This document shows positions 55,705 to 59,631 of a DNA stretch of 64,000 bases, piece by piece. A program made the translations under genes and the position numbers. Below the pieces are notes generated by a model, which was given only the letters and a program-made list of their open reading frames with translations, ran no database searches and had not been told where the DNA came from. Numbering within the stretch: position 1 is the first letter of the stretch; every line of letters starts with the position of its first letter. Source of the DNA: Kofleriaceae bacterium (GTDB taxonomy: Bacteria > Myxococcota_A > Polyangia > Haliangiales > Haliangiaceae); the NCBI GenBank assembly GCA_046160585.1, contig JBJXGN010000298.1:1-64000 (forward strand). Reading direction: 5' to 3'.

Positions 55705-58700
55705 GTGTATGATGACGCCGTGGCGGTCGCGACCTATCCAGGCACGGTGTCGCCGTTGCGAGGGCTCGATCCCTTCGGGGAGGCCGAACGTGACGTCTGG
55801 CACGGGCGAGAAGGAGAGCGCGACGAGATCGCGAAGATGGTGTCGGCCGATCAGTTCCGATCGGGACTTGTCTATGGCGAGCCCGGCGTCGGGAAGACGT
55901 CGCTGGTGCGCGCGGGCCTGATTCCGTATCTGCGCGATCACGGCATCGTGGCGCTCGCGTGCGAGGACCTGACGGAGCCAGCAAAGAGCTTCGCGCAGGG
56001 ACTCTCCGCGTTCGGGATCCAGCCAAACGCGAACGAGCAGCCCGCGATGTTCGCGCAACGCGCCGTGACCAATGCCGTCGCGGGGCAGCAGTTCGTGTTC
56101 GTCGTCGACGACATCGATCTGCTGTGCCAGGACGATCGCGCCGTCGGGGAGCTCAGCGATCTCTACCAGCGCGTCGTGTCGCGCGGCGCTGGCCGCGCGC
56201 GTTTCTTGTTCGTGTGCGCGAGCGAGCGACAGCACTTGCTCGGTGCGCTCGAGCGCAGGACGGGTTCGCTGTTCCCGCCGTCGTCGCGCTACGAGCTGCA
56301 GAGGATCCCGGTGTCGGCGGCCGTCGGCATCTTCGACAAGATGCTCTCGTATTCGGGCGTCGCCGCGGATCCCGCGCTCGCGGAAGCGGTCGTACACGGC
56401 ATCTCGCATGGCCAGCCGGTGCTCGCCGCGGATCTTCAGATCGCCGGCATGGCGATGCGTGACCTACGGATCTCGACGAAGGCCGGGCTCGACAAAGCGG
56501 GCGGGCCGCAGGAGCTCGAGTCGGAGTGGCTGCACGAGGCGTGTCGAGCGACTGGCAACGAGCGCTCCGGGCTACGTTTGTGCGCCGAGATCGCGTCGAC
56601 GAACGCGCCGCGGACAGCCGATTCGATCGTGCGCAAGGTCAACCTCGACCCGGCGTACACGGGCTCGGCGCTGACCGTGCTCGAGCAACGCGGCGTGATC
56701 TGTCGCGCGGATGCGACGGGCAACACCTGGATGCTCCGGCACGAAGTGCTGACGCCGCGGGTTCGCGAGCTCACCGCACCGGCGCGTGCAGCGGCGCGTC
56801 GTGGCTTCGATCTCCTCGGGAGCAAGACCCAGAGCAACCAGCGCCTCAAGCTGCGCGAGCTCCGCGCCCTGCGAACGGAGGGCATCGCCGCCGTCACGCC
56901 CGAGGAGCAGGCCGTCGTCGATCGCAGCAAGCGCTACTACGTGATGATCGCGTGCGCGATCGCGGCGGCGCCCATCGTCATCCTGATCCTCATCTGGATC
57001 TCGATGCGCGGGAAGGTCTACTTCGACCTCGAGCCGCACGCGGGAGGCGATCGTGTCGTCGTTCGCTACGGGCGTGCGGGGCTCTCGAGCTTTCACTGGC
57101 TGCCCGGCGGGTTCGGTGACGAGGTCGCCGATACCGGGCTCACGCGCCCGATGGTCGCCGCCGAAGCGTGGAAGAAGATCGATAGTCACGACATCGGCGG
57201 CAGCGACGACGATTGGGATACGCAGCTTCGCTCGTTGATGGCGCCGCAGCTCGGCGGGCTCGTCGAGTACGCGACCACCGGCAACGAGAAGTCACTCGAC
57301 GCGCTGGCGAAGGCGGCGAAGGATCCGGAGGATCTCGCCGAGCTGCTCGCGTCGCTGCGCCCGATCGCGCGCGGCACGCCCAGCGAGGTCGCGCTCGTCG
57401 AGAGCGCGCTCAAGACACAGTCGCCGGCGGTGCAGCGGGCCGCGGTCGCCGTCGCCGGTGCCGCGGCGGGACGTGGCACGGACGCGTACCAAGACAAGCT
57501 CAGCGCGGCGCTGACCTCGTCGGATCCGGAGCTCCGGCGCATCGCGTTCGCCGCCGTGCGCGGACTCGGCGAGCGCGGTGCGACGCTGTTCGCGAAGGCG
57601 CTCGAGTCGGGGCCCGACGCCGAGGTCAAGCGCGAGCTGATGGTGGAGGTGTCGACGTCGGGAGCACGCCCAGACGACGACGAAGGACCGTCGGTCCCGA
57701 CGATCATCGGCGTGTTCGGCGATCCCGACGCCACACCCGCGATGCGCGATCGTGCGAAGACGCAGATCAAGGGCGCGCTCGCGAAGAATGCCGAGGCGGT
57801 CGCAGCAGAGCTCGTGAAGCTCGTCGCGCTCGACAAGGCGCCCGTCGAGGCGCGCGTATACGCGATCGGCCTGTTGCGCGAGATGGATCCGCTCCCGAAG
57901 GGGCCCGAGTTGGTGGACAGTGCGCGCAGCGCGTTCCAGTCGCGCTCGCCCGCGGTGCGCGCGGCGGCGCTGCCGCTCTACGCGAAGGCAGATCCCGAGC
58001 GCGCGGGTGGCGACCTCGGCACGATGCTCGAGGACAAGAAGCTCGAGAAGCCGCTGCGTGTTGCCGCTGCCCTCGCATGGGGTGAGGTCGCGACGACGAA
58101 CAAGCTCGCAGCGCAGAACGCGCTCGATCGCATGCTCACCGACGACGATCCCGACGTGCGCGCCGCGGCGGCGGAAGCGGCCGGGAAGGCAGGGCGCACC
58201 TACCAGGACAAGCTCGTGAAGATGGCGAAGGGTGAGAACTACGGCGTGCGCATCGGCGCCGCGCGTGGTCTCGCGGTCAGCGCCGAGAGTGGAGGCAGTC
58301 CCGCCGTGGCCGTCGGCGGCATCTCACAGCTGTGGCGCGAGAAGGGCCGCCCGCGCCGCGAGGCAGCTCGTGTCTTCGCGGACCTCGCGAAGAAGAAGCC
58401 GGCGATCGTGCTCGAGTACCTGTCCTCGGCGGCGCGCAACCCCGAGGACGACGGCCTCCATCCGATCGGCGTCGAAGGGTTGTGCAACGCCGCGCTCGCG
58501 GGAAGCGCGGGCGCGCGCTCCATGCTCGCGAGGTCCACCGATGACGAATCTGTCGAGGTGCGCAAGCTCGTCATGGCGTGTGTCGCCGATGGGCCCGACC
58601 CCGCGAAGAACGGTGCGGTGATCGCGGCCAAGCTCGTCGGCGACTCGAGCGCCGAGATCCGCGCGGACGCCGCGCGTGTGCTCTCGATGTCGGCTGCGAA

Positions 58701-59631
58701 GGGCAACAAGGCCGTCGGCGACTCGCTCGTGAAGATGCTCGACGACGCCGATCGCGACGTACGCGTGATCGCGATCCGCGCCGTGGGTGGCCTCGGCGCC
58801 GACGCACCGAAGACCGCGCAGGCGACGATGTCGAAGATGTTCGAGCGCGGGGACGAGGCCGAGAAGCTCGCCCTCCTCAAGGCCGCTCGTCAGATCGGTG
58901 CCTCGGATCTCATCGGCATCGCCGTCGCGGATTCGTCTCCGATCGTTCGCGTCGAGGCTGTCGACGCGGCGCTGTCCTCCGGTCAGCGCGCCAAAGAGAC
59001 GCTGTCGGCCGCCCTCGCGGACCCCGATCCACAGGTGCGCAAGGCCGCACTCGAGCGACTCGCGGCGCAGAAGGACAAGCTCGAGCCGGCGGTCATCGAG
59101 CGCACGCTCGCGCTCGCGGTTCGCGATCCGAACCCGGAGCTCAGCCAGCTCGCCTTGACCACCGTCGCGCGTGTCGCGCCGAAGGAAGCGGTCGCCGCCC
59201 GGCTGACGCGCGCGCTCGGCTCGCGCGCGGAGCGGGAGCGCGCACAGGCCGCGGCCGCGGCGATCGGACTCGTCGATCGTGACGCGGCGCTGACCTCGCA
59301 GCTCCTGTCACCGTTGCTCTCGGATCCGTCGCACGACGTGCGCGTCGCGATGCTCCCGGCGCTCGCCGCCGCCTACGCGAAGATGAACGAGCCCGAGAAG
59401 CTCGCGGGCATGTTGCGCGACTCGGAGACGAACGCGATGCGACGCATCGTGATCGCCGCCGCGTTCATCACGCTTGCGAAGACGGACGCGGGTCGCGCGG
59501 CGACCGAGTCCTCGCTCGGCAACGTGGCGAAGAACGGGCCGCCGATGGCGCGCCAGACCGCGCGGCTCGTCGGGGGGCTGATCGGCGGTAAGGCCGACGG
59601 CATGACGTTCCTCCAGGAACTGATTCCGTAG
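55705..59631 (+). CDS. P-loop NTPase (nSTAND-like) with one TM helix and a C-terminal HEAT-repeat array (1308 aa)
   Basis: Walker A LVYGEPGVGKTSLVRAGLIPYL; Walker B FVFVVDDIDLL; TM YYVMIACAIAAAPIVILILIWISM. At least 15 PBS-lyase/HEAT-like units (for example DPDVRAAAAEAAGKAG, DADRDVRVIAIRAVGGLG). Confidence 0.7.
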   Translation: MYDDAVAVATYPGTVSPLRGLDPFGEAERDVWHGREGERDEIAKMVSADQFRSGLVYGEPGVGKTSLVRAGLIPYLRDHGIVALACEDLTEPAKSFAQGLSAFGIQPNANEQPAMFAQRAVTNAVAGQQFVFVVDDIDLLCQDDRAVGELSDLYQRVVSRGAGRARFLFVCASERQHLLGALERRTGSLFPPSSRYELQRIPVSAAVGIFDKMLSYSGVAADPALAEAVVHGISHGQPVLAADLQIAGMAMRDLRISTKAGLDKAGGPQELESEWLHEACRATGNERSGLRLCAEIASTNAPRTADSIVRKVNLDPAYTGSALTVLEQRGVICRADATGNTWMLRHEVLTPRVRELTAPARAAARRGFDLLGSKTQSNQRLKLRELRALRTEGIAAVTPEEQAVVDRSKRYYVMIACAIAAAPIVILILIWISMRGKVYFDLEPHAGGDRVVVRYGRAGLSSFHWLPGGFGDEVADTGLTRPMVAAEAWKKIDSHDIGGSDDDWDTQLRSLMAPQLGGLVEYATTGNEKSLDALAKAAKDPEDLAELLASLRPIARGTPSEVALVESALKTQSPAVQRAAVAVAGAAAGRGTDAYQDKLSAALTSSDPELRRIAFAAVRGLGERGATLFAKALESGPDAEVKRELMVEVSTSGARPDDDEGPSVPTIIGVFGDPDATPAMRDRAKTQIKGALAKNAEAVAAELVKLVALDKAPVEARVYAIGLLREMDPLPKGPELVDSARSAFQSRSPAVRAAALPLYAKADPERAGGDLGTMLEDKKLEKPLRVAAALAWGEVATTNKLAAQNALDRMLTDDDPDVRAAAAEAAGKAGRTYQDKLVKMAKGENYGVRIGAARGLAVSAESGGSPAVAVGGISQLWREKGRPRREAARVFADLAKKKPAIVLEYLSSAARNPEDDGLHPIGVEGLCNAALAGSAGARSMLARSTDDESVEVRKLVMACVADGPDPAKNGAVIAAKLVGDSSAEIRADAARVLSMSAAKGNKAVGDSLVKMLDDADRDVRVIAIRAVGGLGADAPKTAQATMSKMFERGDEAEKLALLKAARQIGASDLIGIAVADSSPIVRVEAVDAALSSGQRAKETLSAALADPDPQVRKAALERLAAQKDKLEPAVIERTLALAVRDPNPELSQLALTTVARVAPKEAVAARLTRALGSRAERERAQAAAAAIGLVDRDAALTSQLLSPLLSDPSHDVRVAMLPALAAAYAKMNEPEKLAGMLRDSETNAMRRIVIAAAFITLAKTDAGRAATESSLGNVAKNGPPMARQTARLVGGLIGGKADGMTFLQELIP

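Follow-up and report, generated by a model that had tools for sequence, protein, structure and literature searches.

A Kofleriaceae nSTAND1 NTPase with a predicted transmembrane helix and a HEAT-repeat arm, conserved as a single-copy core gene

Proteins of the STAND/NLR type commonly count as soluble sensors of the cytoplasm, and the genes for those of bacteria are often presumed to serve immunity. Whether either view suits a given family is the question raised by a gene at positions 55705 to 59631 of a 64,000-nucleotide stretch of DNA from a Kofleriaceae bacterium (assembly GCA_046160585.1, contig JBJXGN010000298.1, forward strand; this whole stretch is called the window here). An earlier note, made from the letters alone, had read the gene product as an nSTAND-type nucleoside triphosphatase (NTPase) fused to a transmembrane (TM) helix and a HEAT-repeat array, from a clade implicated in conflict or signaling systems. 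Is the protein a conflict sensor, and on which side of the membrane would its repeats lie? The data favor, with a probability of about 0.6, a single-pass inner-membrane nSTAND1 protein with a cytoplasmic switch and a periplasmic HEAT arm, which would act as a housekeeping, envelope-associated sensor or scaffold.

Reading frame and domain architecture

The exact position of the open reading frame (ORF), as given in the earlier note, agrees with the ORF list, base composition, a Shine-Dalgarno-like motif, an identical database protein and the homologs. The GC content at third codon positions (GC3) over the gene, 0.86, is what true genes show in the window, whose overall GC content is 67%, and the Shine-Dalgarno-like GAGGGGG lies 9 nt 5′ of the GTG start. 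The identical NCBI protein (P0001, named "AAA family ATPase [Kofleriaceae bacterium]" and encoded on a 70.9-kb contig) begins five codons later, at an alternative GTG (position 55720), and has 1,303 amino acids (aa). On the opposite strand, a 712-aa ORF (54271..56409) covers the first 700 nt of the gene; we rejected it as a spurious high-GC upstream extension of a DUF4139 gene whose true start is the ATG at 55635.

The N-terminal module belongs to the nSTAND1 clade (PF20703), with a Pfam score of 58.3 bits (cut-off, 27.1 bits; E = 1.3e-15). When residues 1 to 425 served as the query of an exhaustive phmmer search, 1,795 relatives were returned, the distant members of which (24 to 30% identity) align over query residues ~13 to 372 or 13 to 420, far past the P-loop. 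Eight distant relatives scanned against Pfam were all clear nSTAND1 proteins (E values of 1e-25 to 1e-49, over profile positions ~2 to 355 of 379), with Ser/Thr kinase-nSTAND1-WD40, nSTAND1-WD40 or nSTAND1-HEAT architectures; some relatives cross-match the NACHT profile. The BLASTP alignment to the nSTAND1 protein P0223 extends over residues 12 to 372 (E = 4e-29) and stays in register in both the helical module (GQPVLAADLQ versus GGAVLPSELQ) and the winged helix (WMLRHEVL versus YELMHEYL). The AlphaFold2 (AF2) model of residues 1 to 600, built from 76 aligned sequences with a mean predicted local distance difference test (pLDDT) score of 85, consists of a P-loop core (53 to 200), a helical bundle (203 to 297) and a helix-turn-helix with a beta-hairpin wing (305 to 344; pLDDT of 85 to 93), followed by long helices (349 to 377 and 399 to 434, the TM segment being inside the latter), a small beta domain (437 to 500) and helical repeats. 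The two modules typical of STAND proteins, helical and winged-helix, are hence found both in the alignments to verified nSTAND1 proteins and in the AF2 model; together with the PF20703 score and homology extending over residues ~12 to 372 or 420, they uphold the nSTAND identity proposed in the earlier note, whose own ground for refutation, an N-terminal domain lacking these modules, does not apply.

The Walker A string (GEPGVGKTSLVRAGLIPYL, residues 58 to 76) carries the signature which that note had taken as a mark of the clade. In the form GK[ST]S[h]xxAG[h]xPxL it recurs in 118 of 119 orthologs, 47 of 67 distant nSTAND1 proteins and 88 of 110 proteins of a sister family from Polyangia (see below), and so does serve as such a mark. 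The helical motif has the family consensus VLPxDLQ, and His346, an MHD-like His conserved across both families, aligns with the His of the HE.L motif of P0223; the winged helix also gives a weak MarR-like match. Since Walker A, D135, Q245 and His346 are each kept by 97% or more of 252 sequences from the two families, the NTPase module looks functional. Because the module begins at residue 17, the protein lacks an effector or adaptor domain at its N terminus, and Pfam detected no other enzymatic domain in the 1,308-aa protein. About half of the distant relatives do extend N-terminally by 150 residues or more, the extension being a kinase in those that were scanned. An NCBIfam scan of the protein gave sub-threshold matches only, and a profile search of PDB sequences yielded no solved relative (best E = 0.03). 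In the structure search, the best matches of the N-terminal model all share the tripartite core of ATPase, helical and winged-helix domains, and the fold resembles Avs5 and NLRs.

The C-terminal part is a HEAT-repeat solenoid. Pfam HEAT_2 matches it in eight stretches (81.6 bits against a cut-off of 27.7; E = 5e-23), and the AF2 model of residues 436 to 1308 (pLDDT of 82) is all-alpha, with ~50 helices in one continuous solenoid and no inserted globular domain, so that the ~800 aa of HEAT repeats announced in the earlier note are indeed there. The best PDB matches of this arm by Foldseek are CAND1, SF3B1, karyopherins/importin-beta and the PP2A A subunit. Between membrane segment and solenoid lies the beta domain (pLDDT of ~80 to 86 in the N-terminal model), whose residues G456, G471, A475, D476 and G478 are conserved in both families and which phmmer also matched in distant members. 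The linker helices that lead from the winged helix toward the membrane segment (residues 349 to 410) have a mean identity to the target of 72% among the orthologs.

Transmembrane helix, cysteine pair and predicted topology

The single TM helix after the NTPase, as described in the earlier note, was recovered (Table 1), and hydropathy gave no second peak above 1.5 anywhere in the 1,308-aa protein. In relatives, a TM helix was scored where a 19-mer with a Kyte-Doolittle mean of at least 1.8 lay 320 to 410 residues after Walker A. By this measure it occurs in all 119 close and 21 of 22 more distant orthologs, in 60 of 63 distant nSTAND1 proteins and in all 105 sister-family proteins. Overall, 305 of 309 nSTAND1 relatives, kinase-nSTAND1-WD40 proteins included, have the helix at this fixed offset, which suggests that the whole nSTAND1 clade is membrane-spanning.

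The charges around the helix fit the positive-inside rule with the N terminus in and the C terminus out: in the 15 residues on each side, lysines plus arginines number 2.98 in the N-terminal versus 1.61 in the C-terminal flank in orthologs (n = 166) and 3.78 versus 1.54 in distant relatives (n = 50). Where relatives have hydrophobic segments upstream of the NTPase, these come mostly in pairs, so that kinase and NTPase would stay on the same side of the membrane. As the NTPase needs cytoplasmic ATP, the repeat arm should be extracytoplasmic.

The arm also contains two invariant cysteines, C927 and C959, which are retained in 252/252 sequences from two families of ~28% mutual identity. In most members these are the sole cysteines in the 870-residue C-terminal part, and the cysteines of the cytoplasmic part show no conservation between the two families. 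The simplest reading is a structural disulfide in an oxidizing compartment; a metal or redox site may be the alternative. The most likely topology is consequently a cytoplasmic NTPase with a periplasmic HEAT arm, an arrangement also predicted for the WD40/TPR arrays of single-pass bacterial Ser/Thr kinases, which are placed in the periplasm (PMC11032199).

Conservation, sister family and gene neighborhood

A full-length search returned 366 homologs, the best 120 of which are 1,291 to 1,324 aa long and 66 to 100% identical, their named sources being Kofleriaceae, Myxococcales or Deltaproteobacteria metagenome-assembled genomes (MAGs). When GTDB species were scanned, each represented by a single genome, 119 loci emerged. 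Of these, the best 80 come from 80 different MAGs (with Kofleriaceae, Haliangiales and similar labels; 48 to 93% identity), and there is accordingly no second copy at that level of similarity. Overall, the gene is a single-copy, vertically inherited core gene in at least 80 Kofleriaceae-type species genomes.

Over 138 full-length orthologs, mean identity to the target is 0.67 in the HEAT array versus 0.66 in the helical and 0.54 in the winged-helix module. The gap fraction of the array is 0.007, which means that repeat number is unchanged and that there are almost no indels. The ratio of nonsynonymous to synonymous substitution rates (dN/dS) in the three closest comparisons (dS of 0.55 to 0.63) is 0.09 for the NTPase module and 0.08 to 0.10 for the HEAT array; orthologs of ~80% identity, with dS of 0.66 to 0.80 and perhaps near saturation, were left out of this analysis. 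Purifying selection therefore acts evenly on NTPase and HEAT array, contrary to what a diversifying sensor would show.

The sister family comprises nSTAND1-TM-HEAT proteins of 1,310 to 1,360 aa from "Polyangia bacterium" MAGs (e.g., P0210 and P0313), collinear with the target from end to end (28% identity, E = 6e-79). Both families have the TM helix, the ADTG-bearing beta domain and the invariant Cys pair. The locus, however, differs: it runs thiolase, small HisKA/HATPase_c protein, ~100-aa protein, the nSTAND1 gene, DUF3105 and SmpB, a core-genome context within a few kilobases of FtsZ/FtsA. We considered these neighbors as partners common to both families and rejected them, the HisKA/HATPase_c, ~100-aa, DUF3105 and thiolase genes being without a homolog in the window and sporadic in Kofleriaceae loci. 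Within the sister family itself, the genes for the soluble HisKA/HATPase_c protein (229 to 248 aa) and the highly conserved ~100-aa protein lie directly upstream of, and on the same strand as, the sister gene in 3/3 loci examined (L083, 7826-8950; L084, 7894-8967; L085, 7785-8955), and the two may be the operon partner set of that family.

In the Kofleriaceae, synteny was assessed by tblastn of the window's neighboring genes against 82 related loci. The conserved element is a divergent block on the other side of a short intergenic region (Table 1): 66/82 loci have the ABC ATPase, 56/82 the 417-aa multi-TM protein and 59 to 67/82 the DUF4139 copies, the loci without block genes having mostly just short upstream flanks. 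The ABC pair is kept even in loci whose ortholog is only 48 to 55% identical (L078, L079 and L081). Farther out, the gene for a 2,081-aa TPR protein is found in 36/82 loci, 2 to 7.5 kb upstream of the nSTAND1-HEAT gene. The ABC exporter and the secreted DUF4139 proteins may be partners of the nSTAND1 protein in Kofleriaceae, the association being syntenic only. The DUF4139-like genes are tandem paralogs whose products each have a signal-like N-terminal hydrophobic segment, one alone scoring above the Pfam threshold; orthologous loci have between 0 and 2 copies of them, whereas the adjoining ABC ATPase stays.

As the earlier note had it, a TetR gene lies convergent and 4 bp downstream; the weight put on it as context, in contrast, does not hold. 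TetR was found in 0/82 related loci, as were the next genes for a TonB-type receptor and a VWA protein, which discards TetR as a functional partner, and L001 and L002 have other genes on the downstream side. A scan of 55400-60400 detected no sigma-70-type promoter and three terminator-like sites, a number that does not exceed chance expectation.

Table 1 Features of the nSTAND1-TM-HEAT gene and its surroundings (window positions; residues are those of the 1308-aa protein)
Feature	Position	Strand	Details
nSTAND1-TM-HEAT gene (NTPase, TM helix, beta domain, HEAT solenoid)	55705..59631	+	GTG start, 1308 aa
nSTAND1 N-terminal motif SPLRGLDPFGEAERDVWHGRE and P-loop alpha/beta core	55753..56304	+	Residues 17-200; PF20703; AF2 strands and helices 53-200, pLDDT ~90
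Walker A GEPGVGKTS	55876..55902	+	Residues 58-66; G61, G63, K64, T65 and S66 at least 97% conserved (252 sequences, two families)
Walker B FVFVVDDID	56092..56118	+	Residues 130-138; D135 at least 97% conserved (252 sequences); D136 and D138 nearly invariant
Helical bundle (lid/ARC1-like) with GQPVLAADLQ motif	56311..56595	+	Residues 203-297; AF2 helices; Q245 at least 97% conserved (252 sequences)
Winged helix ending W-x-L-R-H346-E	56617..56745	+	Residues 305-347; AF2 helices 305-312 and 316-328, strands 332-334 and 341-344; H346 at least 97% conserved
Linker helices toward the membrane	56749..56934	+	Residues 349-410; AF2 helices 349-377 and 383-392, start of helix 399-434
Single predicted TM helix YYVMIACAIAAAPIVILILIWISM	56935..57006	+	Residues 411-434; Kyte-Doolittle 19-mer mean 2.85
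Juxtamembrane beta domain	57013..57204	+	Residues 437-500; ADTG motif 475-478; AF2 strands 437-445, 448-455 and 473-480
HEAT-repeat alpha-solenoid	57214..59628	+	Residues 504-1308; ~50 helices, roughly 25 repeats
Invariant Cys pair	58483..58581	+	C927 (58483-58485) and C959 (58579-58581); A-helices of adjacent HEAT repeats, 32 residues apart
69-bp intergenic region shared with the DUF4139/ABC operon	55636..55704		Divergent arrangement kept in related loci
Conserved divergent block	50974..55635	-	Pfam, NCBIfam, hydropathy and tblastn synteny
DUF4139 paralog A	54271-55635	-	Start ATG 55635
DUF4139-like paralog B	52949 to ~54283	-	
ABC ATPase	52227 to ~52960	-	
Multi-TM 417-aa protein, presumed permease	50974-52227	-	No Pfam match; at least 6 hydrophobic segments
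TetR gene	59636..60310	-	Convergent, 4 bp from the nSTAND1 gene stop codon

The window as a whole has ordinary chromosomal gene content (acyl-CoA dehydrogenase, FAD protein, HAMP-SpoIIE phosphatase, and TPR, VWA and PPC-domain proteins) and flat GC across its 64 kb, and no tRNA, integrase or defense genes were found in it. The description of the gene as encoding the third giant HEAT protein of the window is only loosely right. Among the other large proteins, HEAT matches were obtained in two only, both weak: the 1,678-aa protein at 5598-10631 (HEAT_2, 26.9 bits, under the 27.7 cut-off) and the 1,024-aa protein at 27880-30951 (HEAT_PBS). The 2,081-aa protein (42205-48447, minus strand) is a TPR protein.

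Several other genes of the window are worth recording in their own right. The 655-aa protein at 24-1988 (plus strand) combines a major vault protein (MVP) shoulder domain (PF11978, E = 2.9e-20) with a vault repeat (PF17795, E = 3e-11), and an MVP-like gene is thus carried by a bacterial MAG. The 1,533-aa protein at 23306-27904 (plus strand) has an internal SUFU (Suppressor of fused) domain at residues 885 to 1049 (E = 1.2e-39) and a weak BNR/YCF48-like match near its N terminus. The HAMP-SpoIIE (PP2C-type) phosphatase gene is at 36323-38026 (minus strand), and a 342-aa protein encoded at 48339-49364 (plus strand), divergently from the TPR giant, gives a weak HATPase_c match (E = 6e-4); these two are signaling genes.

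Alternative readings, proposed mechanism and meaning

The conflict or defense role implied by the earlier note was not supported. It would make the protein an NLR-like anti-phage or conflict sensor, in which the HEAT array recognizes an invader protein and the NTPase oligomerizes to trigger a response, and it draws on the clade itself, nSTAND1 having been delineated among predicted counter-invader systems (Kaur, Iyer, Burroughs and Aravind 2021; PMC8195603), on the kinase N-terminal domains and WD40 sensors of distant relatives, on the resemblance of the fold to Avs5 and NLRs, and on the JGI name of one sister-family member ("conflict system STAND superfamily ATPase"). However, PADLOC produced no meaningful match (best, OloA, E = 0.0018, in the HEAT region, and BrxB, E = 0.046), and neither does the protein carry an effector or adaptor domain nor is there an adjacent effector gene (nuclease, protease, TIR, SIR2, kinase or similar), the neighbors being the ABC transporter, DUF4139 and TetR genes. 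The gene occurs at one locus per genome and is vertically inherited across at least 80 species genomes; the supposed sensor evolves with the same omega (~0.09) as the NTPase and keeps its repeat number; the window has none of the signs of a defense or mobile island; and the sister family sits beside SmpB and FtsZ. In addition, phage proteins produced inside the cell would be out of reach of a sensor arm that probably lies beyond the cytoplasm. A 2026 survey classed just 198 of 589 prokaryotic STAND clades as defense-associated (PMC13581612), and core-gene behavior such as that seen here is therefore not anomalous in itself. On balance we regard a defense function as improbable.

Other alternatives concern the topology and the fold. 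The hydrophobic helix could be a monotopic/re-entrant or peripheral anchor, with NTPase and HEAT arm both cytoplasmic and the protein a membrane-tethered scaffold; HEAT solenoids such as those retrieved by the structural matches are classically cytoplasmic or nuclear, a proline (P423) invariant among close orthologs sits in mid-helix, and there is no cleavable signal peptide. Yet at ~24 residues the segment cannot for its length form a helical hairpin, the mid-helix proline is missing from distant relatives, the flanking charges obey the positive-inside rule, the upstream hydrophobic segments of relatives are mostly paired, as true spans would be, and an invariant Cys pair in a Cys-poor arm fits an oxidizing compartment, all of which makes the anchor unlikely. 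A good deal less probable still is an Orc1/Cdc6-type AAA+ ATPase in place of a STAND NTPase, for while the N-terminal module does match the ATPase, lid and winged-helix fold of these initiators, the orc1/cdc6 model TIGR02928 reaches 11 bits (E = 0.14) where its cut-off is 181, whereas the nSTAND1 profile is significant, and the PDB profile search gave no significant match; the two are told apart by sequence profiles, the fold alone being insufficient. More credible than any of these, though held tentatively, is that nSTAND1-TM-repeat proteins, this Polyangia-wide HEAT family among them, make up a class of transmembrane NLR-like receptors, in which the periplasmic arm, here a HEAT solenoid that an invariant disulfide would stabilize, would bind an extracytoplasmic ligand or envelope partner and drive nucleotide-dependent oligomerization of the STAND module in the cytoplasm. 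This would be outside-in signaling in a housekeeping rather than an immune role.

A number of points weigh against the favored reading of a periplasmic-armed, envelope-associated protein. The PF20703 match is local, covering profile positions 1 to 167 of 379, the P-loop half only, so that Pfam alone leaves open whether the helical and winged-helix modules are those of STAND proteins. In the structure search Orc/Cdc6 ranked slightly above STAND proteins, and the fold by itself is accordingly no proof of STAND membership. The inferred topology depends on hydropathy and charge bias only, a HEAT array of 870 residues would be out of the ordinary in the periplasm, and the beta domain is of low confidence in the truncated C-terminal AF2 model. 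Our literature search retrieved no experimental or descriptive work on the nSTAND1-TM-HEAT family or on membrane-spanning nSTAND1 proteins; with no experimental study of the clade in that literature, the switch mechanism is an argument from analogy. Finally, the ABC/DUF4139 block is not in the sister family, so that the two families have no conserved partner in common, and shared ancestry alone may account for the synteny in Kofleriaceae.

A single-pass protein with a periplasmic HEAT arm could nonetheless work as follows. Characterized STAND proteins (Apaf-1, NLRs, MalT) switch between ADP and ATP, have a closed state held by the winged-helix His and oligomerize after nucleotide exchange. By analogy, an N-terminal cytoplasmic switch of P-loop, helical lid and winged helix would be joined via a long helix and the TM segment to the beta domain and HEAT solenoid, and in the resting state the NTPase module would be ADP-bound and closed, held by His346. 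Engagement of a ligand or partner by the repeat arm would then lead to nucleotide exchange and oligomerization. With the arm across a single TM helix, coupling would have to occur via ligand- or partner-induced clustering, which would carry the signal across the membrane as in other single-pass receptors. Lacking an effector domain, the protein would have as its output either the assembly that it forms or the recruitment of a partner encoded by another gene. The strict conservation and core-genome context, together with an arm that is likely periplasmic, speak for a housekeeping role at the envelope.

Of the known systems, the nSTAND1 clade is the closest. With nSTAND1 proteins such as kinase-nSTAND1-WD40 it shares the N-terminal motif, the Walker A GK[ST]SLxRAGLxPxL, the VLPxELQ motif and the winged-helix His of HE.L, as well as a hydrophobic helix ~350 to 375 residues after Walker A that is followed by a superstructure-forming repeat array; in contrast, it lacks an N-terminal kinase, effector or adaptor, has HEAT instead of WD40 repeats and an extra beta domain, and is the product of a single-copy core gene under purifying selection, not of a variable conflict locus with several genes. 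Apaf-1, NLRP3, ZAR1, MalT and Avs are soluble receptors of the cytoplasm, and most of them have an effector or DNA-binding domain; the present protein, by contrast, would span the membrane, has no effector and probably holds its repeat arm outside the cytoplasm. With the single-pass Ser/Thr kinases of Planctomycetota and Myxobacteria (PMC11032199) it shares the logic of an ATP-using domain inside, one TM helix and repeats predicted outside, except that the cytoplasmic module here is a STAND switch; some distant relatives carry both.

Databases already name the orthologs "nSTAND1 domain-containing NTPase" or "HEAT repeat protein," and the result is one of careful annotation rather than discovery. 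Its most interesting leads are that the TM helix recurs across the clade, that the sensor arm probably faces outward and that the Cys pair is invariant. The family appears to be a membrane-spanning, effector-free STAND switch, strictly conserved and vertically inherited across a bacterial class, and matches to nSTAND1 should not, therefore, default to a conflict-system label. If the predicted topology is true, it would provide a route for signaling across the membrane by STAND proteins.

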